Part shown: piece by piece, positions 11,839 through 53,793 of the stretch
How positions within the stretch are numbered: the stretch's first letter is position 1
Layout of the letters: every line of letters starts with the position of its first letter
Assembly: GCA_016213135.1 (NCBI GenBank)
Contig: JACRBQ010000028.1
Span: 71,284 to 135,283 of the forward strand
DNA: 64,000 nucleotides
Source of the DNA: Chloroflexota bacterium
GTDB taxonomy: Bacteria; Chloroflexota; Anaerolineae; Anaerolineales; VGOW01
Direction: 5' to 3'
Translations under genes and position numbers: made by a program
Notes under the pieces: generated by a model
What the model saw: the letters and a program-made list of their open reading frames with translations, nothing else
What the model was told of the DNA's origin: nothing
Database searches by the model: none

Positions 11839-11839
11839 A

Positions 11840-38495: not shown

Positions 38496-38552
38496 AAAAA
38501 CAAACTGGGAGCGGAGCGCCCACGCGGCAACCCGCTCCCAGTTTTTTGTTTT
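38496..38552. terminator. Strong bidirectional rho-independent terminator
   Basis: AAAAACAAACTGGGAGCGG (38496-38514) pairs with CCGCTCCCAGTTTTTTGTTTT (38532-38552). The stem is flanked by A- and T-runs. Confidence 0.8.
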
Positions 38553-38608: not shown

Positions 38609-38636
38609 TTGTGCCAAATGCTAAATCTGTTACACT
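38609..38636 (+). promoter_or_regulatory. Candidate sigma-70-type promoter for the small peptide gene
   Basis: TTGTGC (38609-38614), 16 nt, TACACT (38631-38636), in the only AT-rich stretch of this neighbourhood, about 100 nt upstream of the 38741 ATG. Confidence 0.25.
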
Positions 38637-38740
38637 ATACAAATAGTCCATATTATGAGGCAAGCCGCGTTTGCACTAAAGGGAGGCGCGCTACCTCAGT
38701 AGTATATTCGCATTTCCACCTACCGCTCAGGAGGCCAGCC

Positions 38741-38806
38741 ATGTACGAGAAGCCCGAAATCACCAAGCACGACGACCTGTCCCAGATCACCTTCAGCAGC
38801 CACTAG
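38741..38806 (+). CDS. 21-aa peptide MYEKPEITKHDDLSQITFSSH; candidate RiPP precursor/scaffold with lasso/PqqA-like leader features
   Basis: AGGAGG lies 6 nt upstream of the ATG. 19 of 20 sense codons end in G/C (host-like GC3) within an AT-rich intergenic region. Spacing Y2-x2-P5-x-I7 ... T17-x matches the Y-17/P-14/L-12/T-2 lasso leader motif. Flanked by hairpins. Confidence 0.55.
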   Translation: MYEKPEITKHDDLSQITFSSH

Positions 38807-38919
38807 TTCTACCCGACTCGGCAGACTAGCCCGTGAACCGTTCTCGCCCGAGTCGCCTGGCACCACAGCACGACCCGTCGTAGCGCGCCTCCCTTTGGCT
38901 CAAACTCGCACTTGAATAT

Positions 38920-38953
38920 CCTCCGAGTGTCTGTCCAATGCGACACTCGGAGG
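38920..38953 (+). promoter_or_regulatory. Perfect 12-bp stem-loop between the peptide gene and the nucleotidyltransferase gene; the 3' arm contains the downstream GGAGG
   Basis: CCTCCGAGTGTC (38920-38931), 10-nt loop, GACACTCGGAGG (38942-38953). GGAGG at 38949-38953 lies 11 nt before the ATG at 38965. Confidence 0.6.
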
Positions 38954-38964
38954 CCTAATGCCGA

Positions 38965-40137
38965 ATGCCAGCCTTTGCCCAGTCCGCCGCCCAGGTATTG
39001 CTCTCTGCACTTCGCCACGGCCAAACCGCCAATGCGTGGGAAGCCGAGCGCTCGCAATCTGGCGTGGAATGGGAAGACCTCGCCATCCGGGCCATTGTGT
39101 TCGGGTTGGCTCCTCAGTTGCACCATCGGCTGCAAAGGTGGGGGGCCGCCGTGCCGCCCCGCGCCGCGGCCAAGCTGGCAGCCACCTATCAGGCCACCGC
39201 ATACCGCAACGCCGCCATCTATGAGCAACTGGGGCAACTGCTCGTCGCCTGCGACGAACACGGCGCGCATCCCATCGCCCTCAAAGGCGCGCACCTTGCC
39301 GCTGCCGTGTACGCGCACCCGGCACTGCGCCCCATGAGCGACATTGACCTGCTGTTTGCGCCGGGCGAGCTGCCCGCCGCCGAGGCCGCCCTGCGCTCGC
39401 TGGGTTACGAGGGCAAGCATAAGCCCGCCCAAATCGGCGCCGGCGTCACCAAACACACGAGCACGTTTCAGCGCCCCGCGCCCACTGAGGCCACGCCCAA
39501 CCCTTACCTCTCGGCACAGGCCAACGTCATGGTCGAGCCGCACGGCTCGCTCGAAGAATCGTGGTACGGCCTGCGGGTGGACATCACCCCCGGTATGAGT
39601 GACCGGGCCGCGCAAGCCTGGCTCGGCGGCTGCGGCTGCCGCGTGCTAACGCCCGAGGATTTGCTGTTGCACCTGTGCGTCCATTTTTGTTTTCATTTGA
39701 TCATGGGCGCGCCTTCGATGGTGCAATTGACGGACCTCCTTACGGTGGTGGACACATGCTCTCCCGATTGGGCTGTGTTCACTTCCCGCGTGCTGGATCG
39801 CCGCGCCGCACCCTACGCGTTGGCAGCTTTGACTCTGGCTTCCGGCCTGCTGGGTGCGCCCGCGCCACAGTCCACGCTGGCCGCCCTCTCGGCTGCCGCG
39901 CCGGGGCCGTTGCGCGCGCGCATCGCCCGCCTCGGCCTCGCCGATGTTCTGCGGCGCACGCAACAAAAACCGTTCAACAATCTTGCGGGCCGCATTTGGC
40001 ATGGCCTGGCCGACCGCGCCGAGACTGCGCGCTGGGCCGCCGACTGGCCAAGCCGCTGGCGCGTGTGGCAAACGGCGTTGAATGTGGGAAGCACTGATAC
40101 AGGACGGATGCTATTGAAAATGAACAATGAACAATGA
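38965..40137 (+). CDS. Uncharacterised nucleotidyltransferase family protein (NTP_transf_5-like), copy 1
   Basis: 390 aa; paralogous in layout to 57135..58316 (e.g. ALKGAHLAAAVYAHPALRPMSDIDLLF vs VLKGWPVVERLYANPAQRVMYDHDFLL; LHLCVHFCFH vs IHLAMHFAGH). The stop lies inside a heptamer repeat. Confidence 0.7.
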   Translation: MPAFAQSAAQVLLSALRHGQTANAWEAERSQSGVEWEDLAIRAIVFGLAPQLHHRLQRWGAAVPPRAAAKLAATYQATAYRNAAIYEQLGQLLVACDEHGAHPIALKGAHLAAAVYAHPALRPMSDIDLLFAPGELPAAEAALRSLGYEGKHKPAQIGAGVTKHTSTFQRPAPTEATPNPYLSAQANVMVEPHGSLEESWYGLRVDITPGMSDRAAQAWLGGCGCRVLTPEDLLLHLCVHFCFHLIMGAPSMVQLTDLLTVVDTCSPDWAVFTSRVLDRRAAPYALAALTLASGLLGAPAPQSTLAALSAAAPGPLRARIARLGLADVLRRTQQKPFNNLAGRIWHGLADRAETARWAADWPSRWRVWQTALNVGSTDTGRMLLKMNNEQ

Positions 40138-40200
40138 ACAATGAACAATGGCGATACTTCTGACCTCTGACCTCCGACCTCTGTCCTCCGCCTTCCGAAT
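40117..40200. repeat. Heptamer tandem repeats (aatgaac x4, then tgacctc-type x5)
   Basis: aaaatga acaatga acaatga acaatga acaatgg cgatact tctgacc tctgacc tccgacc tctgtcc tccgcct tccgaat. TGA at 40121/40128/40135/40142 and ATG at 40120/40127/40134/40141/40148. Confidence 0.9.
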
Positions 40201-42028
40201 GAAGCTCTCTCGCCTTCTCGCCACCGCCCTCGCCGTTGCCGGAGCCGCCTCCGCCGCCCGCGTGCTTCGCCGCCGTCGCGCCTGGGAGCAGACTCACAAC
40301 CGCGTTGCCATTTGTGTCGATTTCGACGACGCCCACGAGGCCGCCATTCGCGCCGCGCTGCCTTTCGACTCCTTCCTCGGTGAGCTTGCCCGCCACGGCG
40401 CGACTCATCTCTCCCTGCCCGAACTTACGCTCAACCGTTTGATCGAAGGCGGGCGGCTCACCCCGCAATCGCCGGCCACGCCGTTCAGTCGCGCCCCGCG
40501 CGTGGGCCGCTGGAATTACCTCCACGGCGACCCGGCCCTCGTGAGTCAACTGGCCGCCGAACTGTCGGCGCGGTTGCCGTACACCGAACCGGCCATAATG
40601 GGTGAGGGCACGCTGGTGTTTGCGGGCGACCTCGCGGCCATTGGCTCCATCGGCATGGGCTTCGACGCAAGCGTCGCGGCGATTATCGCCGGGCAAGGGC
40701 TGGGTGTGGTGTCACGCCCGGTCAGTTATCCGTGGCCCGAAGATTCCCTCATCACCCTCAGCCTCGCGCAGGCCTCGGTGTTCGGCAAGCTCATCGCCTT
40801 CGACGGCGAGATGATTCTCGGCCACGAGATGCACCTCAGCGCAACGCTTGAGGCCATGGAGCGCGAGGGGCTGACGCTGGTTTACTTTGCCGAGTCGCGC
40901 CACCAAAAGGGCGACTGGTTCGTTGCCAAGCGCCGCGCTCCAGCGGTGGTGCTGGCGCACGGCTTCACTCCCGCCGGGATGATTCCGTTGGACTATCACG
41001 CTGCCGCGCATTTGTGGGCGCACCTGGCGCGTGAGCGCGGCATCCGCTTTTGCTACGTCACCCTTTTCAAAGTGCTGCACGCCACCGCGCCGCTCGAAGC
41101 GTTGCACTACGTCGGGCATATCAAGGAGGCGCTGGAGGCCGAGGGCTTTGTGGTGACGGCAGACGCGAGCCTGCCTGTGCCCGTGCCCGCGCCCGATAAA
41201 AAGGATTTAGCCCTGGTGGGCCTGACCTCGGCGGGCGCGGCCTCAGCCGCGCTGGCCGGCGCGCTGAACCTGCCCGAGGCCGCCGCCGTGCCATTGGTGG
41301 CCCTTGCCGCAGGGGCCGCCGTCGCGCTGCCCTACCTCGAGCAACCGCGCGATCGTTTGGAGGCGCAATACCCGCCCTCGTATGCGCCCAAACTGCTGGC
41401 CCTCGCTGCTGCATTGTCGCCAGTGGCAGCCCTCGCCGCGCGCAACCCGCTGGAGTGGGGCCAGGGCCTGCTGCTGCAAACCGCCGCCGCCGCCGGCCTC
41501 GCCGTTTTCACCAGCGGGCAGGATTATCATTTGCGAATCGAAGAATACCGGGGCTTCAATTTGGATTGGCTGCTGCCGCTGGCGTATGCCGCTACCGGCA
41601 TCCCCGATGCCATGGCGCGGGTCGCGGCCATCAGTGCGCTGGTGGGCGCGTGGGCGGTGCTCACTCAACGCGGGCAAGACCCGCTGGCGAAGCTTGACCC
41701 GGCGCATGCCGAAGGTCACACGCACCACCTCTCGGCGGCCACGCGCCTCTTGGGCGACGCCCGCATGGTCCTTGGGCCGAAACCGGCGCGCAAGTGGGCC
41801 GGGCTGGGCGCGGCGGGCACAGCGGCCGGCCTCGTGCTGGCCAGTCGCGGGCACAGGCAATGGGCCGCCGTTGCCGCGCTGGCCGGAGCCGTGGGCGGCG
41901 TGCTGGGCCTCGTGGGCTTCCGCCGCCCCGAGCGCGCCCTCGCCGTCACCGCCAAAGAATCATTACCGAGTTGGGGCGTTGGCATTGCCGTCGGCTTGCT
42001 TGCCCTGTTGTTCTATCGTCGCGAGTAG
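40199..42028 (+). CDS. Large polytopic membrane protein with an N-terminal extracytoplasmic domain (DUF5693-like)
   Basis: Start moved to ATG 40199 (MKLSRLLATALAVAGAASAA...). N-terminal pattern RVAICVDFDDAHEAA...GATHLSLPELTL, then more than 8 hydrophobic helices. Family assignment is from memory. Confidence 0.5.
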   Translation: MKLSRLLATALAVAGAASAARVLRRRRAWEQTHNRVAICVDFDDAHEAAIRAALPFDSFLGELARHGATHLSLPELTLNRLIEGGRLTPQSPATPFSRAPRVGRWNYLHGDPALVSQLAAELSARLPYTEPAIMGEGTLVFAGDLAAIGSIGMGFDASVAAIIAGQGLGVVSRPVSYPWPEDSLITLSLAQASVFGKLIAFDGEMILGHEMHLSATLEAMEREGLTLVYFAESRHQKGDWFVAKRRAPAVVLAHGFTPAGMIPLDYHAAAHLWAHLARERGIRFCYVTLFKVLHATAPLEALHYVGHIKEALEAEGFVVTADASLPVPVPAPDKKDLALVGLTSAGAASAALAGALNLPEAAAVPLVALAAGAAVALPYLEQPRDRLEAQYPPSYAPKLLALAAALSPVAALAARNPLEWGQGLLLQTAAAAGLAVFTSGQDYHLRIEEYRGFNLDWLLPLAYAATGIPDAMARVAAISALVGAWAVLTQRGQDPLAKLDPAHAEGHTHHLSAATRLLGDARMVLGPKPARKWAGLGAAGTAAGLVLASRGHRQWAAVAALAGAVGGVLGLVGFRRPERALAVTAKESLPSWGVGIAVGLLALLFYRRE

Positions 42029-42103
42029 AGCGGGAGTCAGGAGTCAGGAGTCAGAGGTCAACATTGAGTCTTGAGCCTTGAGCCTTGTGAATTGTGCATT
42101 GTG
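42029..42103. repeat. Heptamer-periodic element carrying phased stop and start codons
   Basis: gagtcag gagtcag gagtcag aggtcaa cattgag tcttgag ccttgag ccttgtg aattgtg cattgtg. Plus-strand tca at 42037/44/51/58; TGA at 42065/72/79; GTG at 42087/94/101. Confidence 0.9.
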
Positions 42104-42931
42104 CCTTCTCCTCTTTCCTCCTCCTTCGCCCACATCCCCTCCGGCCCGTTCATCTACGGCCCGGAAGAGTGTTACGAGCGGCTTGAGCAGTGCCCGCCGC
42201 TCAAGCCGAGGCAAACGCTGGAACTGCCGGAGTTTTGGATAGCCAAGGCCCCGGTGACGTATGGGCAGTGGCGGGAGTTTTTGGAGGCGACGGGCCACCG
42301 ATGGGCCGGGCAGTGGTATCGAGTCGTTCGTGGCTGGCGAGGGGTTTTCTTGCGCGCCTATGCGCCCACACCCACTTATCCCGCTGGGCACGACGACGTC
42401 CCCATCGTTGATGTGTCGCAGCGGGACGCATATGCCTATTGCGAATGGCTGTCGGGGCGGTTGGGCTGGCGGTGCACACTCCCCACCGAGGCCCAGTGGG
42501 AAAAGGCGGCCCGGGGCACGGATGGGCGGGTCTATCCATGGGGCGACGAGTCACCCCGGCCCGAAATCCAGTGGCAGCGCAAGTTCCCCGTGGGGCCGGA
42601 GTCGTACCTGTTCAGCCTCGCCGTCCGCCCCCGGCGCGAGTGGGCGCGGGCGGGGTGGTATTGGCGTAACGGTCACCCGTGGCCGGTGGGCGCCGCGCCG
42701 CAAAACGTGTCGCCCTACGGCTGCATGGATATGAGCGGCAACATTTGGGAATGGACGAGCAGCCTTTACAACCCGGCCCTGCCGCAGTTTCACGCGGTGA
42801 AGGGCGGGTCGTGGGGGTACAGCATTCACCACACGAAGTTGAATGTTCGCAGCGCGTGTAGTGTAACGACTCCCAGCGCCGAATACCGGGCGCAGGGCAC
42901 GGGGTTTCGGATGATGGTTGAAATGGTCTAA
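42101..42931 (+). CDS. Formylglycine-generating-enzyme (SUMF1/FGE-sulfatase) domain protein
   Basis: Frame of track ORF 42071..42931; probable start at the third phased GTG (42101, VPSPLSSSFAHIPSGPFIYG...). FGE-type motifs (PVVDVS-like PIVDVSQRDAYAYCEWL, RLPTEAEWE-like CTLPTEAQWEKAARG, NIWEWT, KGGSW, GFR). Confidence 0.8.
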   Translation: MPSPLSSSFAHIPSGPFIYGPEECYERLEQCPPLKPRQTLELPEFWIAKAPVTYGQWREFLEATGHRWAGQWYRVVRGWRGVFLRAYAPTPTYPAGHDDVPIVDVSQRDAYAYCEWLSGRLGWRCTLPTEAQWEKAARGTDGRVYPWGDESPRPEIQWQRKFPVGPESYLFSLAVRPRREWARAGWYWRNGHPWPVGAAPQNVSPYGCMDMSGNIWEWTSSLYNPALPQFHAVKGGSWGYSIHHTKLNVRSACSVTTPSAEYRAQGTGFRMMVEMV

Positions 42932-43198
42932 ACTTTGGAGCGGGGACTGTAGAACCGCGCCGTAGCAGACCGGAAGCCGCCGAAGTTTATGCACGAAGAG
43001 ACTTTTCGATTTGTGCAGTTGTAGTGATTTGTCTGTCATAGTAGAGACATTTGCGGGTTAAGCAGTCGTTAGGCGGCTTGGCGCAATCCAAAGTGCCGCC
43101 AGTTCGGTCACCGCGTGTCCCGCGGGAGTTCGGTGAAACTGCCGGCTTATCGGCACAAGCGTTTGTATTCATTCTGCTGGATAAGGAGAAACTTCCAC

Positions 43199-43987
43199 AT
43201 GGAGCAGAAAGAACACCTATCAAACGAACGACCGCCCGTCGTGTTCGTCCCCGGTGGGATCATGCCTGCCGCGATGGCATACGGGCCGCTCCTCGACGTG
43301 GCCAAGGGCGAAGTCCAACCGATCGTCAAGGACTTGGAGGTCTACGCTACCGATACGCCGCCACCTGACTTCGGGCTGGAGTTGGAGGTCGAAGGTATCC
43401 GACGCGTTGCCGACGACGCCGGCGCAAAGCGCTTTCACCTCGTCGGATATTCCGCCGGCGGCGCATCCTCTCTGGCATTCACCGCGAAATATCCCGAGCG
43501 GCTCAGAAGCCTTGCCCTGATCGAGCCAGCTTGGAGTGGCGGTTTGATGACCCCCGAGGAGACGGCTGACTGGGCAGAGCTCGACCACGCGATGTCTCTC
43601 CCGCCCGGCGAGCGGATGCGCGCGTTTATGCGCTGGCAAATGCGCCCGGGCGTGGAGCCGCCTGTTCTACCGCTGCCGCCTGGACCACCACCGCCCTGGA
43701 TGGCAAAGCGACCGGCGGGCCTCGAAGCATTCGCCCGAGCCTTCAAGATCTACAACCTCGACACGGAGCGCTTTCGCCAATTTCAGCAACCGGTCTACTA
43801 TGTGCTCGGCGGCCTGAGCACTCGATACTACGAGCGCGCGGCAAAGAGGCTCGCCGGCCTGTTCCCCAACATGCAAGTGGAAGTTTACGAGGGTCGCAGC
43901 CACATGGATCCACCACACCGAGCCGAGTCAGAGCGGTTCGCGCGGGCGCTGCGCGCGCGGTGGGCGCGCGCTGAACAACCTTTATAG
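43199..43987 (+). CDS. Alpha/beta-fold hydrolase
   Basis: Start at ATG 43199, after AAGGAGAA (MEQKEHLSNERPPVVFVPGG...). Nucleophile elbow GYSAGG. Confidence 0.75.
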   Translation: MEQKEHLSNERPPVVFVPGGIMPAAMAYGPLLDVAKGEVQPIVKDLEVYATDTPPPDFGLELEVEGIRRVADDAGAKRFHLVGYSAGGASSLAFTAKYPERLRSLALIEPAWSGGLMTPEETADWAELDHAMSLPPGERMRAFMRWQMRPGVEPPVLPLPPGPPPPWMAKRPAGLEAFARAFKIYNLDTERFRQFQQPVYYVLGGLSTRYYERAAKRLAGLFPNMQVEVYEGRSHMDPPHRAESERFARALRARWARAEQPL

Positions 43988-44003
43988 TTGTGGAGGACAA
44001 TCT

Positions 44004-44294
44004 ATGGCTGCGTATATCGTTGGGCGAATGCATATCCAGCATCGAGACTGGTGGGATGAGTATTTCGCGCAAGTCCCCGCCTTGATCGCACAACATTCAG
44101 GCAAATTCCTGGTGCGCGGCGGCGCTCCTGAAACGCTGGAAGGGCACGAGCGCCTGCCCGATGTTGTGTTTGTTGTCGAATTCCCGAGCAAAGCACAGGC
44201 CCTCGCATTCTGGCATTCTGCCGATTTTGCGCCATTCATTGCGCTCCGACAAACCGGCTCCACGCTGGAAGCGATGCTTCTCGACGGCGTTTAA
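44004..44294 (+). CDS. DUF1330 domain protein
   Basis: 96 aa; MAAYIVGRMHIQHRDWWDEYF...FVVEFPSKAQALAFWHSADF... matches the DUF1330 pattern as I remember it. Confidence 0.65.
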   Translation: MAAYIVGRMHIQHRDWWDEYFAQVPALIAQHSGKFLVRGGAPETLEGHERLPDVVFVVEFPSKAQALAFWHSADFAPFIALRQTGSTLEAMLLDGV

Positions 44295-44418
44295 GTGGAC
44301 CATGTGATGCGTGCATCTGCCGCCAAATAGTCGTTACACGCGTTACGTCTTCCGATATCGTCCGATTTCACTGTGACGTAGAGTAAATGAGAGGCGGTGG
44401 CACAACTCGCTAACTGAA

Positions 44419-44652
44419 GTGATAAAATTCCTCAATCGAGTAATTCGGGGATGGCGGAACTACTTTCGTAGTGGAAACTGCACCTTGAAATTCCAGCAAC
44501 TTGACCGCTATGTACGCAACCGACTGGAACAATGGGTTCGGTCTAAACAGGGGTCTCGTGGGCATTGGAACGAACGTGCCTTTCGGGATTTGATGGCTCA
44601 ACACGGATTGGAATACTTCTACCTGCCCGGAGTATGTGCGGTTAAGCCTTGA
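44419..44652 (+). pseudogene. Group II intron reverse transcriptase/maturase, C-terminal fragment only (~77 codons)
   Basis: IKFLNRVIRGWRNYFRSGNCTLKFQQLDRYVRNRLEQWVRSK...; the RT finger/palm domains are absent. Confidence 0.7.
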
Positions 44653-44677
44653 AAGCCACAGGAAGAAGGTTGTCAGA

Positions 44678-44710
44678 GAGCCGGATGAGGGAAAACCTCA
44701 TGTCCGGTTC
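44678..44710 (+). ncRNA. Group II intron domain V
   Basis: GAGCCGGAUGAGG-GAAA-ACCUCAUGUCCGGUUC: AGC catalytic triad, 2-nt bulge, GAAA tetraloop; close to the domain V consensus. Confidence 0.75.
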
Positions 44711-44887
44711 GAGGTGGCAGGGGATGAAAACCAGACATGGTGATGGTATTGAGGCACTCTCAGAAGAAATGGAGAGCAACGGGTCTGCCACACCTAAATT
44801 CAGGCGTCATCCCTTGACCCTACCAGCCGATGGGCGGAGGTTGCCGCTATGAACACAGGCTTTTTCTGAATGAAAGGAGAACCCAAA

Positions 44888-45328
44888 ATGATAAAGTATC
44901 GTAGTGAGATAGCTATCAATCGGCCAGTGGACCAAGTCTTTCGTTTCGTAACCGATGTCCAGAAGTATTCGCAATGGACGGATATGGGCGAGACCAGGCT
45001 CGTTTCCGATGGCCCGCTCGGAGTCGGATCGAAAATGCAAACAGTTATAAAAATGGGCCCTTTGAAAGTGAACATGACTTTTGAAGTAACTGAATACGAA
45101 GTAAACCGAAGGATGTCATTCATTGGTACATCCGCAGGGCCTCTGGAATGGGATGCTACTTTCACTGTCGAGCCCAAAGATGCGTCCACTACGCATATGA
45201 CTAGCTCTGGCGAATTGCGTCTGAAAGGGCTGTGGAGATTGGCCGAGCCGCTCATGGCGGGGGAGGTGAAGAGCGGAGAAGCCAAGGAGCTGGAGAGGCT
45301 AAAGAACCTTCTTGAGACCACTGCATAG
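44888..45328 (+). CDS. SRPBCC (START/polyketide-cyclase-like) family protein
   Basis: Start at ATG 44888, after AAAGGAGA (MIKYRSEIAINRPVDQVFRFVTDVQKYSQW...). GC content is visibly lower than the neighbours. Confidence 0.75.
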   Translation: MIKYRSEIAINRPVDQVFRFVTDVQKYSQWTDMGETRLVSDGPLGVGSKMQTVIKMGPLKVNMTFEVTEYEVNRRMSFIGTSAGPLEWDATFTVEPKDASTTHMTSSGELRLKGLWRLAEPLMAGEVKSGEAKELERLKNLLETTA

Positions 45329-45389
45329 AGCCTGCGTTGTGAGGGGACAAATAGCCGCGCATGCCAAAGCGGCGATCTAAGGAGTTCCT

Positions 45390-46220
45390 ATGCCAAACCC
45401 GCTCCCGCCCAAAGATCCCTATCTGAGATACCTAAAAGTCAACTCGGCAGATGAACTGTGGCAAAAGGTCCTCACCGAGGGCGAACCCATAGATAAGCAC
45501 CTGCATCACCTTTTTGGCCTGCTCCCCTCTAATCCGCGGTGCAAGTATTGTCATGGCCCCTTCACTGGCATTGGCGGCGCGTTCATGCGCTTTCTCGGCG
45601 TTCGCCAATCGGCCAAGAATCCTAAATTTTGTAATGCTTGCGATCTCTTCACTGGTAAGTATCGGGGCGGCGCAGAGGTAGAGCTGACGATGCTGTTCGT
45701 GGATGTGCGCGGCTCGACCACGCTGGCCGAGAAAATGAACGCCACCGAGTTCAGCCACTTGATGAATCGCTTCTATGACGCCGCGATAAATGTCCTCGTG
45801 CATGCCGATGCTTTTATTGATAAACTGGTTGGGGATGAGGTCACGGCCCTGTTCATTCCCGGCTTCGCGGGCAAGGCGCATGCCCGCCGGGCGGTGGACG
45901 CCGGACAGGCCTTGTTGCGGGTCACGGGTTATGGGGAGCCGGGTGGTCCCTGGGTCCCGATCGGAGTCGGGGTCCACACCGGCTCGGCCTACGTCGGTTC
46001 TATTGTTGGCGCAAGCGGAGCCTCCTCCGATTTCACCGCGCTGGGCGACAACGTGAACATAACCGCGCGTCTGGCTTCCAAAGCCGGCTCGGGCGAAGTC
46101 CTAATCAGCGACGCCACGTGCAATGCGGCGCGGATAGAAACTGGGGGATTGGAAAAGCGTGAACTGGAACTAAAGGGCAAAAGTGAGCCGGTGAGCGTGA
46201 GAGTATTGCATGCAGGATGA
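45390..46220 (+). CDS. Class III adenylate/guanylate cyclase with an N-terminal Cys-rich (zinc-ribbon-like) segment
   Basis: 276 aa; CKYCHGP...CNAC, then the cyclase core (LTMLFVDVRGSTTLAE, KLVGDEVTALF, LGDNVNITARLAS). Confidence 0.85.
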   Translation: MPNPLPPKDPYLRYLKVNSADELWQKVLTEGEPIDKHLHHLFGLLPSNPRCKYCHGPFTGIGGAFMRFLGVRQSAKNPKFCNACDLFTGKYRGGAEVELTMLFVDVRGSTTLAEKMNATEFSHLMNRFYDAAINVLVHADAFIDKLVGDEVTALFIPGFAGKAHARRAVDAGQALLRVTGYGEPGGPWVPIGVGVHTGSAYVGSIVGASGASSDFTALGDNVNITARLASKAGSGEVLISDATCNAARIETGGLEKRELELKGKSEPVSVRVLHAG

Positions 46221-46427
46221 CTTACGTGAGCGAAGCGTTCATATCGAACCGCCGCCCAACAACAGGTTCCAGCCGACGTTGCTCCGCCGCGCTCCGACGA
46301 GCGGCTGAACCCGACCGCTATTTTTCATTGGCTGTACGAAGTGGGACATCAGCAGGGTGCTCCGTAGTTCGAAGGCGTATTCACGATAAACTTGTGTACG
46401 TACGAAATGGACGAGGAGGGGACTCCA

Positions 46428-47924
46428 ATGACTTCCAATACCATTTTCCTCATCAACTTCCGCAACCACCGCGATATGTATCCGCCGTTTGGGATCATGT
46501 ACGTGGCCGACGCGCTGGAGCAGGCGGGATTCGGTGTGAGAATCTTCCACGAGACCGAGGAGTTCGTGGGCGACTTTGTGCGGCAAGTGGCCGACGAGCG
46601 CCCGTTGTTCGTGGGCTTCAGCACTATCACCGGGCCGCAACTCAAACCCACCATTGAGGCCTCGCGACGGGTGCACGCGCTGGGCGTGCCGGTGGTGTGG
46701 GGCGGGGTGCACGCCACCATCATGCCGCTCGAAGTGCTCAAAGAAGATTACGTGGATTTTGTCGTGGTGAACGAAGGCGAAGAGACGACGCAAGAGCTGG
46801 CGGGGATGCTGTCGGGCAAGCAGTTGCCGTTCTGGGCCGGGGTGACCGGGCTGGCGTACAAAGACGAACAGGGCGTCCCCAGCTTTGGGGCCGAGCGGCC
46901 CTTCATTCAAGACCTCGACCGCTTTCGCCCGCGCTGGGACAAGATTCCCGTGGAACGCTATCTCATCCCCAGCGGCCCGTACACCCGCGCCATCCCCGTT
47001 TACATCTCGCGCGGCTGCCCCTTCCGCTGCGGCTTCTGCTACAACGAGGTCGTGATGAAGCGCACGTGGCGGCAGCACTCGGATCAGTTCATCCTCGATC
47101 AGCTTCAGTGGCTCAAAGACAACTACCGCATTGACGCCGTGGATTACGCCGACGACTATCTCTTTGGCCGCATCAAGCCCATGCAGCGGCTGGTGGAAAA
47201 AGTGGGCATGCCGTGGAGCGGGCAGGTGCGGGTGCAGTTGCTCTCGCCGGAGTTCGTGCAGTGGATGAGCGATACCGGCTGCCAGTGGGTGAACATCGGG
47301 GCCGAGTCCGGCTCGCAGGCCGTGCTCGATAACATGCACAAAGATCAGAAAGCGTGGCAGATCGAGTGGGGCGTGCGCAACCTCACGCAGGGCGCGCCGC
47401 ACATCGAAGCCAACCTGTCGTTCATCATCGGCCTGCCCGGCGAAAAAGGCGAAGACACCAAAGTGACTCTCGACCTCATCGAGACGCTGTGCGACATCAG
47501 CCCCAAGGCCCGCTGCTCGGTGTGCGTGTACATGCCCTATCCCGGCACGCCGCTGTGGCCGCAGGCGCTGGCGCAGGGCTACGTGCCGCCGGATAATCAG
47601 GAGGGCTGGTGCCACCTCGATCTCAATCGCGGCAACACGCCGTGGATGGACGACGGCGAAGCGCAAGTGATGAGCGACATCAACGACATCCTGTTTGTGG
47701 GCCGCTCGACCGGCCACTGGATTTTGCAGCCCTACTATGCCCTGCTGCGCTGGCGCTGGCGTAATCGCTACTTCCGGCATTACTGGGAGGGCGCGCTCAA
47801 AAAGGCCGTCGCCAATTCGCCGTTGCGCCGGGTGCTGGCCTGGCTCATCGAGCGGCTGGTGCGGTTCAACCCCATCACCCACAAAGGCCCGGCGGCTGAG
47901 GCGGGCGGGTTGGCCGGCGATTAA
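46428..47924 (+). CDS. B12-binding-domain radical SAM protein
   Basis: Start at ATG 46428, after GAGGAGGGG (MTSNTIFLINF...). N-terminal B12-binding-like Rossmann region; CxxxCxxC motif (RGCPFRCGFCYN). Confidence 0.85.
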   Translation: MTSNTIFLINFRNHRDMYPPFGIMYVADALEQAGFGVRIFHETEEFVGDFVRQVADERPLFVGFSTITGPQLKPTIEASRRVHALGVPVVWGGVHATIMPLEVLKEDYVDFVVVNEGEETTQELAGMLSGKQLPFWAGVTGLAYKDEQGVPSFGAERPFIQDLDRFRPRWDKIPVERYLIPSGPYTRAIPVYISRGCPFRCGFCYNEVVMKRTWRQHSDQFILDQLQWLKDNYRIDAVDYADDYLFGRIKPMQRLVEKVGMPWSGQVRVQLLSPEFVQWMSDTGCQWVNIGAESGSQAVLDNMHKDQKAWQIEWGVRNLTQGAPHIEANLSFIIGLPGEKGEDTKVTLDLIETLCDISPKARCSVCVYMPYPGTPLWPQALAQGYVPPDNQEGWCHLDLNRGNTPWMDDGEAQVMSDINDILFVGRSTGHWILQPYYALLRWRWRNRYFRHYWEGALKKAVANSPLRRVLAWLIERLVRFNPITHKGPAAEAGGLAGD

Positions 47925-47936
47925 ACTCGGAGACCC

Positions 47937-48803
47937 ATGCTTGCACTCTCAGGGGGATCGAAGTCGAAACCCATCGGGCAGGTGACCCGCGGCAAAACCG
48001 CGCCCAACCGTTTGCGCCAGACGGACGTGTATCTGGCGGTGGCCCATGCGGCGCAGGTGCGCGGGGCCACGGGCGTTTGCGTGGATTTGGGCTACGGCGC
48101 GTACCCCGTCACCACGGTGGAAACGTTGCACCGCCTGCGGCGGCTCAACCCCGGCCTCCGCGTGGTGGGGGTGGAAATTGATCGCCAGCGGGTAACCGAT
48201 GCCGAACCGTACGCCGAACCGGGGCTGGAGTTTCGCTTCGGCGGCTTTAATTTGCCGCTGCTCCCCGGCGAGCGTGTGAGCTTCATTCGCGCCTTCAACG
48301 TGCTGCGGCAGTACGACGAGTCGGCGGTGGCCGAGGCGCTGGCCGCGCTGGCCGGGCCACTGACCGAGGGCGGGCTGATTATCGAAGGCACGTGCGACCC
48401 GCCGGGACGTTTGCTGACCTTCAATCTGTTTCTCAAACAGGGCGGGGCGCTGAGCCGCACGGGGTTTGTGCTGGCCCCGCGCCTCTCCGGCCTCAGCGTC
48501 GATTTTGACCCTCGCGAGTTTCGCGCCGTGCTGCCGAAAAACTTCATCCATCACGCCGAGCCGGGCGGGGCGGTTGATTGCTTTTTTGCCGCGTGGCACG
48601 CCTCGTGGCAGGCAGCCCGCGCCCTCGCCCCCGACGCGCGCGGCGTCTTTATGCAGGCGGCCCTGCGACTGGCCGATGGCTACGGCTACTCGCTGGATCG
48701 CCGCCCGGCGCTGTTGCGACGCGGGTTCCTATGCCTGGGTGCGCATGTCCTCGCCAGCCTTTCGGGGATCGTGCTCACTTCCGGCCCTAACCGTAGCCGG
48801 TAG
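47937..48803 (+). CDS. Class I SAM-dependent methyltransferase-like protein
   Basis: 288 aa; motif I-like VCVDLGYGAYP and VVGVEID. The last ~118 nt overlap the 3' end of the convergent HprK-like gene. Confidence 0.6.
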   Translation: MLALSGGSKSKPIGQVTRGKTAPNRLRQTDVYLAVAHAAQVRGATGVCVDLGYGAYPVTTVETLHRLRRLNPGLRVVGVEIDRQRVTDAEPYAEPGLEFRFGGFNLPLLPGERVSFIRAFNVLRQYDESAVAEALAALAGPLTEGGLIIEGTCDPPGRLLTFNLFLKQGGALSRTGFVLAPRLSGLSVDFDPREFRAVLPKNFIHHAEPGGAVDCFFAAWHASWQAARALAPDARGVFMQAALRLADGYGYSLDRRPALLRRGFLCLGAHVLASLSGIVLTSGPNRSR

Positions 48804-49699
48804 GCCGGGGCGGATTGCACCAGCGCATTGAGTGCGGCCAGGTGCGCCGGGATCATCGCTCGATCCCACTGCTCGATGGCATGCGGCAGGATGAGTCGCA
48901 AAGCCTCGGGCTGGCTCACCGGCTCGAGGGCATGATCCATGCGCCCTTCGATTTGCGGAAACACAATGGCAGCGGCGGGGGCGCGATCCCGCCACACGTC
49001 CGGCCACAGTCGCTCGGCGGTCACGGTGATCTTTTTTCGCTCGCCGGTTGCCAGTGCGGCAGTCGTTTCAAACCGGGCCAGCGTGTCGGGATACGCGGCC
49101 AGCAGGCCCGGGTAGCTCAGCACCTCCGCCGCGGCGGTGATGATGGGCGAATCGTTCGAGAGCAGTTTCCACCCGGCGTTGAGCAGCGCCATGCCGGTGG
49201 TCGTCTTGCCCGCGCCGATGTGCCCGACGATCAACACCGCTCCCCCTCCCCCATTCCGGTGATGTTCCGGAATGGGGGAGGGGCGGGGTGGGGGCGAGGC
49301 CGCAAAGGCGTGCAGCAAAAACATCCCGCGCCGGCGCAGGTGCGGCGACAGGCCGATGGCAATGAGGTCTTCAAACACGCCGTAGGTGTCGAGCGCGGCG
49401 GAAGTCAGTTGCCCCTCGGTGTGGCCATGGGCGCAGTCCAGCCGCAGTTGCCCGAAGCGCGGGAAGTGCGCGGTGACGCGGGCACCGTCGAGAAAGTATT
49501 GGAGCAAGTCGCCCTGCCGGAACTGCGGCTCGCGGGGCGGGGGCGGGGGAACGTGATCGGTGAGGGACAAGTGAAACGTGATCGTCGGCGGCTTGCCGTC
49601 CGCCTGCGGGCGCGAGGCAAACGATTCCACCCATCGCTCGCCGATGGCCGCCTCGTCCCACTGCCCCTCGACGACCACGCCGTGGAGGTCCCATAACAT
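48686..49699 (-). CDS. HPr-kinase-related P-loop kinase, copy 1 (HprK-related kinase of RiPP-like clusters)
   Basis: Probable start at MLWDLHGVVV... (49699); the longer track start at 49762 would overlap the PqqD gene. Core LLHAFAAS...AVLIVGHIGAGKTTTGMALLNAGWKLLSNDSPII resembles the HprK C-terminal domain. Confidence 0.75.
   Translation of the reverse strand: MLWDLHGVVVEGQWDEAAIGERWVESFASRPQADGKPPTITFHLSLTDHVPPPPPREPQFRQGDLLQYFLDGARVTAHFPRFGQLRLDCAHGHTEGQLTSAALDTYGVFEDLIAIGLSPHLRRRGMFLLHAFAASPPPRPSPIPEHHRNGGGGAVLIVGHIGAGKTTTGMALLNAGWKLLSNDSPIITAAAEVLSYPGLLAAYPDTLARFETTAALATGERKKITVTAERLWPDVWRDRAPAAAIVFPQIEGRMDHALEPVSQPEALRLILPHAIEQWDRAMIPAHLAALNALVQSAPAYRLRLGPEVSTIPERLARTCAPRHRNPRRNSAGRRSSE
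49242..49283. repeat. 17-bp perfect palindrome inserted in-frame in the HprK-like gene
   Basis: CCCCTCCCCCATTCCGG (49243-49259), 7-nt loop, CCGGAATGGGGGAGGGG (49267-49283). It encodes ...PPPRPSPIPEHHRNGGGG... just upstream of the P-loop. Confidence 0.85.
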
Positions 49700-49734
49700 G
49701 GCCGCGAGTATATCACGCAGAGAGTCTTCAAAAA

Positions 49735-50034
49735 ATGGCCGTACCGAAATCTGAGGACACATTGGACGCCGAGACCGTACTCCGCCGCTCGCCCCAGAGC
49801 ACCTTTCAAGTCGTGGCCGACGAGGCCATTCTCATCCACCTTGGCACCGGCACGTACTTTTCGCTCAACCGTGTGGGCACGGAATTTTGGCAGATGCTCG
49901 ACGGCCAAGGCACCATCGGCGGACATGCCGAAACCCTCGCCCAAAAATACAGTGTGGACGTTTCGATTGTCACCGCGGACTTGCTGGAGTTGGCCGGAAA
50001 GATGGCCGCGGACAAACTTGTCGATGAACTCTGA
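49735..50034 (+). CDS. PqqD-family RiPP recognition element protein (lasso B1-like)
   Basis: 99 aa; VVADEAILIHLGTGTYFSLNRVGTEFWQMLDGQGTIGGHAETLAQKYSVDVSIVTADLLELAGKM matches the PqqD/RRE pattern. Confidence 0.85.
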   Translation: MAVPKSEDTLDAETVLRRSPQSTFQVVADEAILIHLGTGTYFSLNRVGTEFWQMLDGQGTIGGHAETLAQKYSVDVSIVTADLLELAGKMAADKLVDEL

Positions 50035-50509
50035 AGCTCCCCCATCGGCCGGGCGCGCCCGCCACTGGGCGTTGGCTCTCTCCCTCGCGCCGGGCCTGGC
50101 CCTCAGCCCGCGCCGCCGCGCGCTGTTGCGCGACATGCGCGCCTTTTGCCGCGCCCTGCCGCACGCCCTCGTGAACCCGCTGCCGGAAGCCATGCACAAC
50201 ATCACCCCCGCCGCGCCCGCGCCCGCCGACCTCGATCTCATCCGCAACCTGGCCGACCTCGCCGCGCTGCTGGAGCGCCGCTCGCCGCTGGGATTGTGCC
50301 TGCGGCGCTCGCTCACCCGTTATCACTTTTTGCGCCGCGCCGGGCTGCCTGTGGCCGTGCAGTTCGGGGCGCGGTTCGTCGGCGGCCGGCCCGACCGCGA
50401 CATCACCGGCCATGCCTGGCTCACGTTGCGCGACGCGCCCTACCACGAGTCCGGCGAGGACTGGCAGGGCTTTGCGATCATGTATTCCTATCCACCCACG
50501 GAGGCTTGA
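50024..50509 (+). CDS. Lasso-peptide B2-type transglutaminase-like cysteine protease
   Basis: ATG 50024 overlaps the PqqD stop. GLCLRRSLTRYHFLRRAGLPVAVQFG...ITGHAWLTL gives the Cys and His of the B2 catalytic set. Confidence 0.8.
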   Translation: MNSEAPPSAGRARHWALALSLAPGLALSPRRRALLRDMRAFCRALPHALVNPLPEAMHNITPAAPAPADLDLIRNLADLAALLERRSPLGLCLRRSLTRYHFLRRAGLPVAVQFGARFVGGRPDRDITGHAWLTLRDAPYHESGEDWQGFAIMYSYPPTEA

Positions 50510-53759: not shown

Positions 53760-53773
53760 TTGAGTTTTGAATT
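53760..53773. repeat. Left 14-bp terminal inverted repeat of the four-helix-bundle cassette
   Basis: TTGAGTTTTGAATT is the exact reverse complement of 54152-54165. Part of heptamer array 53741-53775 (gagtttt gaatgtt gagtgtt gagtttt gaattc). Confidence 0.85.
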
Positions 53774-53793
53774 CTCACGAAGGAGTCTTGCCT

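Follow-up and report, generated by a model that had tools for sequence, protein, structure and literature searches.

The closest systems described so far are the Linear Polyphosphorylated Peptides (LPP) of Bacillota (Popov et al., Nat Commun 2026, PMC13381572), in which a Ser near the cleavage site is polyphosphorylated. Their clusters, situated in polysaccharide loci, combine a discrete PqqD-type RiPP recognition element (RRE) with an HprK-like kinase and an uncharacterised NTP transferase, and have no macrolactam cyclase. LPP precursors are 35-200 aa long with variable C-termini and carry the motif YxxPxVLxHQxIxFETxxS; the leader is cut after T-1 by LppS, a SipW-like (archaeal-type SpI) serine peptidase, and the exporter is MsbA-like. 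In paeninodin and pseudomycoidin systems (PMC6993621; Zhu et al. 2016, cited in PMC13381572), with a split B1/B2 pair, a lasso cyclase, WxxP leaders in Bacillota and a core of 20 residues or more with an Asp acceptor, an HprK-like kinase acts on a Ser at or near the precursor C-terminus and a PsmN-like NTP transferase adds a hexose to the phosphate; PsmN itself attaches a hexose to phospho-Ser (PMC6993621). LPP and paeninodins have been described as restricted to Bacillota (PMC13381572), and the function of the PsmN/LppN-type NTP transferases, together with the final structure and role of the phosphorylated peptides, are given as open questions (PMC13381572, PMC6993621).

Three further groups are relevant for the comparison. 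Canonical split-B1/B2 lasso systems (TbiA/TbiB1/TbiB2, fusilassin) show the leader spacing Y-17, P-14, L/I-12 and T-2, and require both a macrolactam synthetase (C protein) and a core of ring and tail with Asp/Glu at position 7-9; the motif definitions used here, [Y/W]xxPx[L/V/I] and a penultimate Thr, were taken from PMC13381572 and PMC10368454, and known B2 substrates have Thr at -2 (PMC10368454). PQQ/PqqA and mycofactocin/MftA systems likewise start from a short ribosomal peptide with a PqqD-type RRE. Finally, Haft's HPr-rel-A system comprises HprK-related kinase A (TIGR04352) with PqqD and nucleotidyltransferase partners; we are aware of no description of a substrate peptide for it.

Here we analysed a 64,000-nucleotide stretch of a Chloroflexota contig (hereafter, the window) with a small ORF at positions 38741-38806 (+), which is a real gene annotated by no gene caller. 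It encodes the 21-residue peptide MYEKPEITKHDDLSQITFSSH (codons ATG TAC GAG AAG CCC GAA ATC ACC AAG CAC GAC GAC CTG TCC CAG ATC ACC TTC AGC AGC CAC TAG) and is preceded by a Shine-Dalgarno site AGGAGG at 38729-38734 (+), 6 nt before the ATG. G or C ends 20 of the 21 sense codons, or 19 of 20 if the ATG is left out, and the GC3 of neighbouring genes is 0.76-0.83. The first-pass annotation, made from sequence alone, had reported the ORF, its AGGAGG and the 19 G/C-ending codons, all of which held; the AT-rich intergenic setting it described was confirmed only for the upstream spacer (GC 0.38-0.46 vs 0.63 for the window), and not for the downstream one (GC 0.61). Its observation that Y2, P5, I7 and T17 occupy lasso positions -17, -14, -12 and -2, if cleavage falls between F18 and S19, can be read directly from the sequence, while the cleavage itself is inferred; the division into a leader of residues 1-18 and a core of S19-S20-H21 is thus a prediction, cleavage not having been shown. 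A longer in-frame ORF starting with TTG at 38546 (86 aa) was rejected: it covers the terminator and promoter region, and conservation is limited to the 21 codons.

All 41 genome loci in which the neighbouring NTP_transf_5 gene has a homologue with sufficient flanking sequence contain the small ORF, and 20 of them carry two tandem copies. The resulting 65 instances, from the window and the 41 loci, all have 21 codons with unalignable flanks, and SD-like AGGAG/GGAGG sites precede nearly all of them. Furthermore, a metagenome scan with a leader-only DNA pattern, which left the C-terminus of the peptide unconstrained, returned 42 stretches, 40 of them from this peptide family, with the C-termini TFSSH (39 times), TFSAH (four) and TFSMH (one). 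The gene is under purifying selection (pN/pS 0.19), with 12, 8 and 20 variable sites at codon positions 1, 2 and 3, respectively, and invariant residues are encoded by several codons (six for L13; AGC or TCN for S20). Residues M1, Y2, K4, P5, H10, L13, Q15, F18, S19 and H21 are invariant; along with Y2 and P5, every instance has I, L or V at position 7, and T17 is kept in all but one (Ala in L044). S20 is replaced by Ala in five instances and by Met in one. Such conservation, seen in all related loci amid synonymous changes and flanks that cannot be aligned, is far beyond chance.

Altogether, some 110 instances, from many Chloroflexota genomes (Anaerolineae-type, several families) and one Acidobacteriota genome, share the same length, stop position and C-terminus TFS[S/A/M]H, leaving an unusually short core of at most 3-4 residues, (F)S[S/A/M]H, without an acidic residue. 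None of ten variants tested was found in a collection of 15 billion proteins; Pfam and NCBIfam gave no significant match for the peptide, only weak ones to lasso (leader) models (E 0.085-0.13), and neither the peptide by itself nor a profile of 25 members found anything among PDB chains. A full-text literature search retrieved nothing relevant on TFSSH, NTP_transf_5 or DUF5693, PF14907 occurring in a single unrelated paper.

These data bear on the simplest alternative, that the ORF is a lasso precursor decayed through a premature stop, or a chance ORF. In its favour, no lasso fold could be built on so short a core, which moreover lacks an acidic acceptor, as is evident directly from the sequence. 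Against it stand the identical length, stop and C-terminus in about 110 instances across several families and a second phylum, the purifying selection and the conserved Shine-Dalgarno sites, and we regard this alternative as all but excluded. The first-pass annotation had listed decay and coincidence as its second and third hypotheses; both fail, as the stop position and TFS[S/A/M]H are fixed across families. It had also named two findings that would refute its idea, namely an ORF not conserved in syntenic loci, or a long-core precursor elsewhere. The 41 of 41 genome loci, the 40 of 42 metagenome stretches and the pN/pS speak against the former. As to the latter, no conventional long-core precursor occurs in the cluster, judged from short ORFs at 30-64 kb with [YW]xxPx[LIVMFA] and a Shine-Dalgarno site; the only other such ORF lies out of frame inside the 58327-59796 gene.

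The gene following the peptide, which always adjoins it, encodes an NTP_transf_5 nucleotidyltransferase, NTP5a (38965-40137, +; PF14907, E 5e-44), as first annotated. Its D126-I-D128 is invariant, and its AF2 model (pLDDT 86.7) matches ANT(2'')-Ia (5cfs, 4xje), LnuA and FKRP; the same ANT(2'') templates were taken for PsmN in the pseudomycoidin study (PMC6993621). Then comes a DUF5693 membrane protein (40148-42028, +), likewise always linked to the peptide gene, in which a TM helix at the N-terminus is followed by a TIM-barrel-like domain and, at the C-terminus, by a membrane region of several helices. Its invariant motifs are VDFDD, GHEMH and DPxHAEGHTHHxS, and many homologues contain a His/Asp/Glu-rich insert of 40-60 residues; a fold search with DUF5693 gave only generic TIM-barrel matches (E above 1e-3). 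Two homologues matched ZIP transporters, but below threshold and on the His-rich stretch only, and no ZIP domain is claimed. In most loci an FGE-sulfatase-domain protein follows (42071-42931, +), without the two catalytic Cys of FGE as read by eye; its likeness to EgtB/SenA is at the domain level only (60 bits vs cut-offs of 360-420) and no His-modifying role is claimed for it. A B12-binding radical SAM protein (46392-47924, +), syntenic in many loci with 75-85% identity between them, may belong to the pathway, although its membership is uncertain.

A second group of genes encodes the presumptive recognition and processing proteins. HprK1, an HprK-like (ScmC-like) P-loop protein with GAGKTT (48686-49762, -), is divergent from a PqqD-family, B1-like RRE (49735-50034, +; PF05402, E 3e-14), whose nearest relative of solved structure is the lasso RRE TbiB1 (5v1u, E 1e-8), against E 0.15 for LppB. 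A lasso-type B2 cysteine peptidase (Transglut_core3; 50024-50509, +) passes NF033537 with 36.5 bits (cut-off 33), Cys92 and His130 being invariant. Next are a cupredoxin-like lipoprotein with a C-x2-H-x3-M motif (50512-51051, +), found in only some related clusters and missing from L065, L067 and L039, and an AsnB-type amidotransferase (51053-52906, +). The first-pass annotation had treated this AsnB as a cluster partner; it is an ordinary glutamine-dependent enzyme (TIGR01536 453 bits, cut-off 267), and at least one related cluster (L039) lacks its gene. A role as lasso cyclase was rejected, as it scores 224 bits with NF033535 (cut-off 525) and starts with MCGIVG, keeping the glutaminase Cys. 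Further downstream are an endonuclease/exonuclease/phosphatase-family (EEP) protein (52970-53749, +), which recurs in related clusters and could possibly be a phosphodiesterase, HprK2, an HprK-like P-loop kinase with NTGKST (54179-55177, +), an ABC-2 type transporter permease (56319-57128, +) and a second NTP_transf_5 paralogue, NTP5b (57135-58316, +). It should be added that the HprK-like proteins match kinase models weakly and far below cut-offs, and their assignment as kinases rests on these matches and on the P-loop motifs. No SipW-like or signal-peptidase domain was detected among all substantial ORFs at 33.6-64 kb.

The association of small ORF, NTP5a and DUF5693 was seen in all loci. 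Most of them show the ORF immediately in front of NTP5a; in L012, L019 and L038 it follows that gene. Linkage to the two HprK-like kinases, PqqD and B2 is frequent and occurs in several gene orders: in the window, L046, L047, L065, L067, L087 and L093 the set HprK1(-)/PqqD/B2, with or without AsnB, EEP and HprK2, follows 5-11 kb downstream; B2 adjoins the small ORF divergently in L076; and in more distant genomes, as in the loci of Ardenticatenaceae, Promineifilaceae and Leptofilum, HprK2 does so, with or without NTP5b. Outside the window, NTP5b shares an operon with HprK2 that is divergent from the peptide genes. In L092, only two small ORFs, NTP5a and DUF5693 were found within 10 kb, and L091 has neither PqqD nor B2 within that distance. 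As PqqD, B2 and the kinases are not found nearby in every locus, the dependence of the peptide on the RRE and B2 is less secure than that on NTP5a and DUF5693. The earlier view of PqqD and B2 as the main partners was corrected, NTP_transf_5 and DUF5693 being the tightest ones; similarly, the NTP_transf_5 paralogue is some 18 kb downstream, not about 10 kb as had been stated, the PqqD operon beginning about 11 kb downstream. Polysaccharide-type surroundings were observed in the window (GT2 and PMT_2), L040 (GT2 genes) and L046 (Wzy_C), and genes for Fur and CbiM adjoin the cluster in five Leptofilum-type loci.

The cluster thus resembles that of LPP in having a discrete PqqD-type RRE, HprK-like kinases and uncharacterised NTP transferases without a macrolactam cyclase, in its polysaccharide context, and in the Ser, modified in LPP and proposed to be so here, within three residues of the leader end. 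Moreover, the LPP motif aligns in register with Y2, P5, I7, H10, L13, T17 and S20 of the peptide, whereas its L-10, Q-7, F-3 and E-2 are not kept. Other features differ: the peptide has 21 residues, no variable core and a stop only 1-2 residues past the Ser; a lasso-type B2 is encoded in place of an SpI-like peptidase, and the PqqD protein is nearer to TbiB1 than to LppB; instead of an MsbA-like exporter, only the ABC-2 permease and DUF5693 were found; there are two kinases, two NTP transferases and an invariant C-terminal His; and the hosts are Chloroflexota plus one Acidobacteriota genome rather than Bacillota. The invariant His has no role in either the LPP or the paeninodin analogy.

With paeninodin and pseudomycoidin the cluster shares the split B1/B2, the HprK-like kinase and the PsmN-like NTP transferase, NTP5a having the ANT(2'') structural templates of PsmN; it has neither a cyclase nor a ring-forming residue, and the leader is YxxP instead of WxxP. 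Canonical split-B1/B2 lasso systems are approached in the leader spacing, the RRE, the B2 model and a small residue (Ser) at core position 1, yet their requirements for a C protein and for a ring-and-tail core are not met by this cluster and its three-residue core. In the absence of an acceptor Asp/Glu, a tail and a cyclase, the peptide cannot be a lasso peptide, and the early statement that a lasso fold is impossible held. As in PQQ and mycofactocin, only a few C-terminal residues would reach the product; unlike there, the modifying enzymes are kinases and nucleotidyltransferases, there are no PqqE/MftC-type radical SAM-SPASM enzymes (the sole radical SAM protein being B12-binding and without a SPASM domain) and no Glu/Tyr or Val-Tyr motif, and no data exist for small-molecule release. 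The marks of PQQ, a conserved Glu-x3-Tyr core and PqqE, PqqB and PqqC as partners, are not satisfied: E-x3-Y is lacking and the PQQ PqqD model gives 19.9 bits (cut-off 46). The HPr-rel-A system is similar in its HprK-related P-loop protein, PqqD-family protein and nucleotidyltransferase near exopolysaccharide genes, but neither kinase is a member (TIGR04352, 25.3 and 26.1 bits vs a cut-off of 200).

On balance, we are inclined to interpret the peptide as the precursor (A peptide, 21 residues) in a RiPP pathway that is related to lasso pathways but linear, with a phosphorylated and probably glycosylated product, the chemistry being assigned by analogy, without biochemical, transcript or peptide data. 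The peptide would be made from a short transcript, the ends of which pair as a conserved 20-bp helix of inferred role. Its N-terminal Y2-x-x-P5-x-[I/L/V]7 would dock on the PqqD-type protein in the manner of lasso and LPP leaders, as suggested by motif, spacing and gene linkage. By analogy with PadeK, PsmK and LppK, either or both of the HprK-like kinases might then phosphorylate the invariant Ser19, possibly several times, and the PsmN-like NTP_transf_5 enzymes may put a hexose or other phospho-linked group on that phosphate or hydroxyl. B2 would cut after F18, Thr17 being at -2, and free the decorated Ser-x-His tripeptide. That DUF5693 and the ABC-2 permease then handle or export the product, amid the many polysaccharide genes of the locus, is speculative. 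This corresponds to the leading hypothesis of the first-pass annotation, a non-lasso scaffold or precursor with a short Ser/His end decorated by kinases and nucleotidyltransferases, which is favoured here and also agrees with the 2026 description of LPP (PMC13381572); the modifications, the cleavage site and any small-molecule release of the present peptide are inferred. The matching of two Ser to two kinases, noted there as merely suggestive, failed because S20 can be replaced; for the same reason S19 is the likely acceptor.

A point against this pathway is that, in the register matching LPP, the cut would fall after T17 and S20 would carry the phosphate, although it is S20 that varies and S19 that is fixed; the cleavage and acceptor assignments therefore remain ambiguous. 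Correspondingly, the same kind of substrate might be processed otherwise, being cut after T17 to give F-S-S-H, as in LPP, or left uncut, in which case the whole phosphorylated and glycosylated 21-mer would be the product, possibly attached to or priming a cell-surface glycopolymer. This alternative can draw on the LPP register (T17 as -1, S20 as +3), on a leader unusually conserved for a discarded part (K4, K9, H10, L13 and Q15 invariant or nearly so), on genomes without B2 within 10 kb, and on the glycosyltransferases that fill the locus (GT2 and PMT_2 in the window, and those of L040 and L046). It is nonetheless unlikely: the peptidase is of the lasso B2 type, whose known substrates, with Thr at -2 (PMC10368454), fit a cut after F18; no SipW-like peptidase occurs at 33-64 kb; and the LPP-equivalent acceptor S20 is Ala or Met in six instances.

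The region around the gene also shows RNA features. RNAalifold applied to 20 loci predicted as the sole structure a 20-bp long-range helix, the 5' arm of which (CTAAAGGGAGGCGCGCTAC region) is at 38675-38694 (+), some 62 nt ahead of the ATG, and the 3' arm (GTAGCGCGCCTCCCTTTGGC) at 38880-38899 (+); the distance from the arms to the start codon is 47-62 nt, and that from the stop codon roughly 70 nt. Across these loci 96% of cells are paired, 11 of the 20 pairs exhibit compensatory changes, and none of 500 shuffles reached the observed values; covariation shows that a conserved helix brackets the peptide gene, its role being inferred. A promoter-like site at 38629-38656 (+; GTTACA, 16 nt spacer, TATTAT), recognised by consensus match only, would start a transcript just before the 5' arm. 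In addition, a perfect 12-bp hairpin was seen in the window at 38920-38953 (+), with GGAGG in its 3' arm before the NTP_transf_5 gene. Rfam returned no family in this region, only chance matches on the upstream terminator.

Such an arrangement raises the possibility of a regulatory uORF, encoding an arrest or attenuator peptide, that together with helix and hairpin controls the expression of NTP_transf_5 and DUF5693. The position directly upstream of NTP5a in most loci, the helix around the ORF and the hairpin covering the NTP5a Shine-Dalgarno site in the window are consistent with it; arrest peptides are known to have conserved C-termini adjoining the stop codon. Tandem duplicates in 20 loci, the location downstream of NTP5a in three, and the full RRE-binding motif at lasso spacing with linked RRE and B2 peptidase argue against it. 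Furthermore, given the distances of the helix arms from start and stop, a ribosome on the ORF would not open the helix. We consider this explanation very unlikely.

Another reading sees the release of Ser-x-His as the point of the system, with a tiny ATCUN metallophore or metal-handling tag as the partner of the His-rich DUF5693. The minimal ATCUN motif for binding Cu(II)/Ni(II) consists of a free N-terminus and His as the third residue, and the invariance of S19 and H21 with S, A or M between them is as expected for X-X-His. The invariant GHEMH and DPxHAEGHTHHxS of DUF5693 with the His/Asp/Glu-rich inserts of its homologues, the cupredoxin with Cys/His/Met ligands between B2 and AsnB, and the adjoining Fur and CbiM point in the same direction. 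All these links are circumstantial, however: the cupredoxin is missing from three related clusters, Fur and Cbi genes adjoin the cluster in a single lineage only, possibly through inherited synteny, the ZIP matches fall below threshold and on the His-rich stretch alone, the DUF5693 fold search was uninformative beyond generic TIM barrels, and the kinases and nucleotidyltransferases are left unexplained. There is accordingly very little to recommend it over the phosphorylated-peptide pathway. A bolder version of that pathway, which we deem improbable, would have lasso-type recognition and cleavage release a decorated Ser-x-His acting as a small molecule, from a precursor mRNA that is a discrete helix-closed RNA; the product could then conceivably be an ATCUN-type Cu/Ni unit operating with DUF5693, or a phosphoglycosyl tripeptide priming or capping a surface polymer. 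Were this true, Ser-x-His would be the shortest RiPP core known with lasso-type machinery.

The present analysis adds a peptide gene family not annotated so far, and would, by analogy, extend the kinase/NTP-transferase RiPP chemistry beyond Bacillota and point to a lasso B1/B2 leader processing, inferred here, that was recruited without the cyclase. Being only 21 residues long, with a single invariant Ser and a single invariant His, the peptide would be a minimal natural substrate, which could ease solving the questions of PsmN/LppN-type function and of the final product. If the tripeptide is truly released, this would represent an extreme case of a ribosomal scaffold for small-molecule production. 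DUF5693 and NTP_transf_5 proteins, in turn, gain a concrete and testable partner.

The first-pass annotation had placed a short open reading frame at 38741-38806 of the forward strand, and this location held exactly: the frame reads MYEKPEITKHDDLSQITFSSH, followed by TAG, with AGGAGG at 38729-38734 and the ATG 6 nt further on. Third codon positions were G/C in 20 of its 21 sense codons, GC3 of the neighbouring genes being 0.76-0.83; the spacer showed 38-46% GC upstream of the frame and 61% downstream (63% for the window). The peptide locus is set apart from the upstream DUF6249 gene by a strong hairpin (38496-38550), terminator-like in both directions and flanked on either side by A/T runs, and a promoter-like site (38629-38656) precedes the frame. 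The next gene encodes an NTP_transf_5 protein (NTP5a, 38965-40137; PF14907, E 5e-44). Further along are genes for an HprK-like P-loop protein (HprK1, 48686-49762, reverse strand), PqqD (49735-50034), a lasso-type B2 leader peptidase (50024-50509), AsnB (51053-52906), a second HprK-like protein (HprK2, 54179-55177) and a second NTP_transf_5 protein (NTP5b, 57135-58316). The DUF5693 protein of the window is identical to that of locus tag HY679_06530, the host being a Chloroflexi MAG.

Loci for comparison were fetched from species-representative genomes through alignment of NTP_transf_5 protein homologues, giving 45 loci, mostly of Anaerolineae, Ardenticatenaceae, Promineifilaceae and Leptofilum, with one Vicinamibacterales genome. 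Absence from syntenic loci, which according to the first-pass annotation would have refuted its reading, was tested: the same kind of frame was present on the same strand in all 41 loci with sufficient flank, and in the other four the sequence ends less than 135 nt from the match. All 65 instances (41 loci and the window) were 21 codons long, and nearly all had AGGAG or GGAGG about 5-10 nt ahead of the ATG. The frame could be aligned between loci and its flanking sequence could not. Among 60 distinct nucleotide versions pN was 0.11 and pS 0.59 (ratio 0.19), with 12, 8 and 20 variable sites at codon positions 1, 2 and 3, respectively; L13 was written with six codons, T17 with four, and S20 as AGC, TCT, TCC or TCG. 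This substitution pattern, together with the many codons used for invariant residues, shows that selection acts on the peptide and not on the RNA. Residues M1, Y2, K4, P5, H10, L13, Q15, F18, S19 and H21 were invariant across the family, K9, T17 and S20 nearly so. In a separate test, public metagenome contigs were scanned with a DNA pattern covering residues 1-15 only; 40 of the 42 stretches recovered belonged to the peptide family, and the unconstrained ends read TFSSH (39 times), TFSAH (four) and TFSMH (once). Ten peptide variants were all missing from a set of 15 billion predicted proteins, which indicates that gene callers have overlooked the family. By sequence analysis, the frame is thus a conserved, selected peptide gene preceded by a ribosome-binding site, and the alternative of a decayed or chance frame is refuted by these conservation data. 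Another rival explanation, that of a regulatory upstream ORF, has evidence against it: tandem double copies occur in 20 loci, the position relative to NTP5a varies (in L012, L019 and L038 the frame lies between NTP_transf_5 and DUF5693, not upstream of the former), and the peptide carries the binding motif for a PqqD-type recognition element (RRE). It should be added that the Vicinamibacterales contig (L044, 2.65 Mb; Acidobacteriota) encodes the peptide MYEKPKLTKHEDLSQIAFSSH, with Ala replacing Thr17, along with the bracketing helix described below, NTP5a, NTP5b, DUF5693, FGE, rSAM and HprK1; this suggests that the entire cluster was transferred horizontally.

A conserved, long-range RNA helix of 20 bp encloses the peptide gene, or both copies where these are in tandem; in the window its arms are 38675-38694 and 38880-38899, and the consensus of the 5' arm is GCCAnAGGGAGGCGCGCTAC. 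Perfect inverted repeats of at least 10 nt were found at the same position in 56 of 97 distinct instances, distant genomes included (L002-L093). RNAalifold on 20 aligned loci, which had been selected for having the inverted repeat, returned the bracketing helix as its sole prediction, with 96% of cells paired and compensatory changes at 11 of 20 pairs; none of 500 shuffles reached these values, and slid controls were 34-52% paired. The promoter-like site would set the transcript start at the 5' arm, which suggests either a discrete RNA whose two ends pair or a site for RNase III. No Rfam family matched the helix region. Separately, a perfect 12-bp hairpin (38920-38953; arms CCTCCGAGTGTC and GACACTCGGAGG) includes in its 3' arm the GGAGG preceding the NTP_transf_5 start at 38965, and might regulate translation of that gene.

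NTP5a and DUF5693 were constant neighbours of the peptide gene; most loci had an FGE-sulfatase-domain gene next, and many had one for a B12-radical SAM protein. In closer relatives (L046, L047, L065, L067, L087, L093) the order was peptide gene, NTP5a, DUF5693, FGE, rSAM, HprK1 (reverse), PqqD, B2, AsnB, an endonuclease/exonuclease/phosphatase-family (EEP) gene and HprK2, some having a small lipoprotein gene between B2 and AsnB. The window shared this order, plus a lower-GC insert at 43.1-46.2 kb. This block (43115-46220, GC 0.52-0.56) carries alpha/beta hydrolase, DUF1330, SRPBCC and adenylate/guanylate cyclase-domain genes, and is probably an insertion breaking the FGE-rSAM adjacency of related loci. 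Elsewhere the arrangement changed: L039 had NTP5a, DUF5693, HprK1 (reverse), PqqD, B2 and EEP without AsnB, in L076 B2 and the peptide gene were divergent, and in Ardenticatenaceae and Leptofilum-type loci HprK2 was divergent from two peptide gene copies, often with NTP5b and a 428-aa protein. Since the linkage persists through rearrangement, a shared function of the peptide and the linked genes is favoured. Linkage to PqqD and B2 is not universal within reach: both were absent within 10 kb in L091, and L092 had only two peptide gene copies, NTP5a and DUF5693 inside 10 kb.

Several further features of these loci were recorded. The conserved 428-aa protein, which many clusters encode with NTP5b on one side and HprK2 on the other (L021 2901-4184, reverse strand; homologues in L007, L022, L027, L029, L032, L036, L037, L040, L042 and L043), had no Pfam or NCBIfam match, and the window yielded no homologue. 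EEP and HprK2, directly adjacent in L046, are separated in the window by a gene (53767-54153) for a four-helix bundle belonging to the '23S rRNA intervening sequence protein' family. In a Promineifilaceae genome (L091) an inserted PIN-domain toxin-antitoxin pair (11430-12081) separates NTP5a from DUF5693. Genes for a Fur-family regulator and a CbiM/Q/O-type transporter adjoin HprK2 in Leptofilum-type loci (L031 663-3989; L028, L032, L034, L089), which may reflect a link to metals or merely inherited synteny.

The solved structure nearest to PqqD was the lasso-leader-binding protein TbiB1 (5v1u, E 1e-8), with LppB (9x8z), from the Linear Polyphosphorylated Peptides (LPP) system, much further away (E 0.15). 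B2 scored 36.5 bits on the lasso B2 model of NCBIfam, above the cut-off of 33, and its Cys (SPLGLCLRRSL) and His (GHAWL) were retained in four homologues. The model of NTP5a was confident (pLDDT 86.7) and best matched ANT(2'')-Ia (5cfs, 4xje among them), LnuA and FKRP, each of which transfers a nucleotidyl or phospho-alcohol group onto a hydroxyl; D126-x-D128 was invariant. PsmN, the NTP transferase required for hexose on phospho-Ser, was modelled on the same two ANT(2'')-Ia templates in the pseudomycoidin paper (PMC6993621). The HprK-like proteins had P-loops and matched HPr kinase models only weakly. DUF5693 (40148-42028), a membrane protein, has a soluble domain that is TIM-barrel-like and for which no convincing or close solved relative was found; VDFDD, GHEMH and DPxHAEGHTHHxS were invariant. 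Many homologues have a His/Asp/Glu-rich insert of 40-60 residues between membrane helices, hinting at metal binding. Enzyme linkage and partner identity at family or fold level are established by sequence analysis. AsnB was also considered as a lasso cyclase and rejected, scoring 224 bits on the cyclase model (cut-off 525) and passing the true asparagine synthase model; its N-terminus MCGIVG represents the glutaminase nucleophile, and the best match was an exopolysaccharide-associated amidotransferase family. Between B2 and AsnB (50512-51051) lies the gene for a lipoprotein that is cupredoxin-like and has the motif C-x2-H-x3-M; it was present in L046, L047 and L087 and absent from L065, L067 and L039.

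The peptide reproduces the lasso leader spacing, Y-x-x-P-x-[I/L/V] with Thr two residues ahead of Ser19, but its end of 3-4 residues lacks the Asp or Glu that defines a lasso core, and the equally defining cyclase is missing from the cluster; each of the two features was tested for. A conventional long-core precursor elsewhere, which the first-pass annotation had named as a further refutation, was looked for at 30-64 kb and not found: one other short frame there had [YW]xxPx[LIVMFA] and a ribosome-binding site, and it lies out of frame within the response-regulator gene. The closest known system is the LPP family, reported in May 2026 from capsular polysaccharide loci of Bacillota and having no cyclase (PMC13381572). 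LPP precursors share the motif YxxPxVLxHQxIxFETxxS, a SipW-like peptidase cuts after T-1 and core Ser3 becomes polyphosphorylated; in the heterologous host the NTP transferase showed no activity, and neither the end product nor its function is known (PMC13381572). The motif aligned in register with Y2, P5, I7, H10, L13, T17 and S20. However, LPP precursors have 35-200 residues against 21 here, and our peptide ends one or two residues past Ser. A B2 is linked instead of the SipW-like peptidase (no signal-peptidase-like gene was found at 33-64 kb of the window), two kinases and two NTP transferases occur in the clusters, DUF5693 is among the partners, and the hosts are Chloroflexota and one Acidobacteriota genome, whereas LPP and paeninodins are confined to Bacillota according to the authors (PMC13381572). 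Owing to these differences we class the peptide as a putative phosphorylated linear or lasso-related RiPP and not as an LPP member. Neither LPP nor paeninodin offers a counterpart to its invariant C-terminal His, which stays unexplained.

Every chemical step of the pathway is inferred, there being no experimental data for the family. The leader would dock on the PqqD protein and the kinases would phosphorylate the invariant Ser19; S20 is not essential, since Ala or Met replaced it in six instances. PsmN-like enzymes may then lengthen the Ser phosphate with a sugar or other group, and B2 is predicted to cleave between F18 and Ser19, where Thr would occupy position -2 and a small residue +1, to yield a decorated Ser-x-His. 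Rival readings are that the peptide is cut after T17, or left uncut. A speculative one, which we rate low, is free Ser-x-His as a minimal ATCUN Cu/Ni site; its support is circumstantial, namely the His-rich DUF5693, the cupredoxin in the operon and the Fur/CbiM genes beside Leptofilum-type clusters. To return to the decorated peptide, the first-pass observation was confirmed and its main reading, a modified short-core precursor that is not a lasso, holds, with the chemistry inferred. The peptide gene is real, unannotated and unusual, and it represents a kind of system, its chemistry and function still open, that was described only in 2026.
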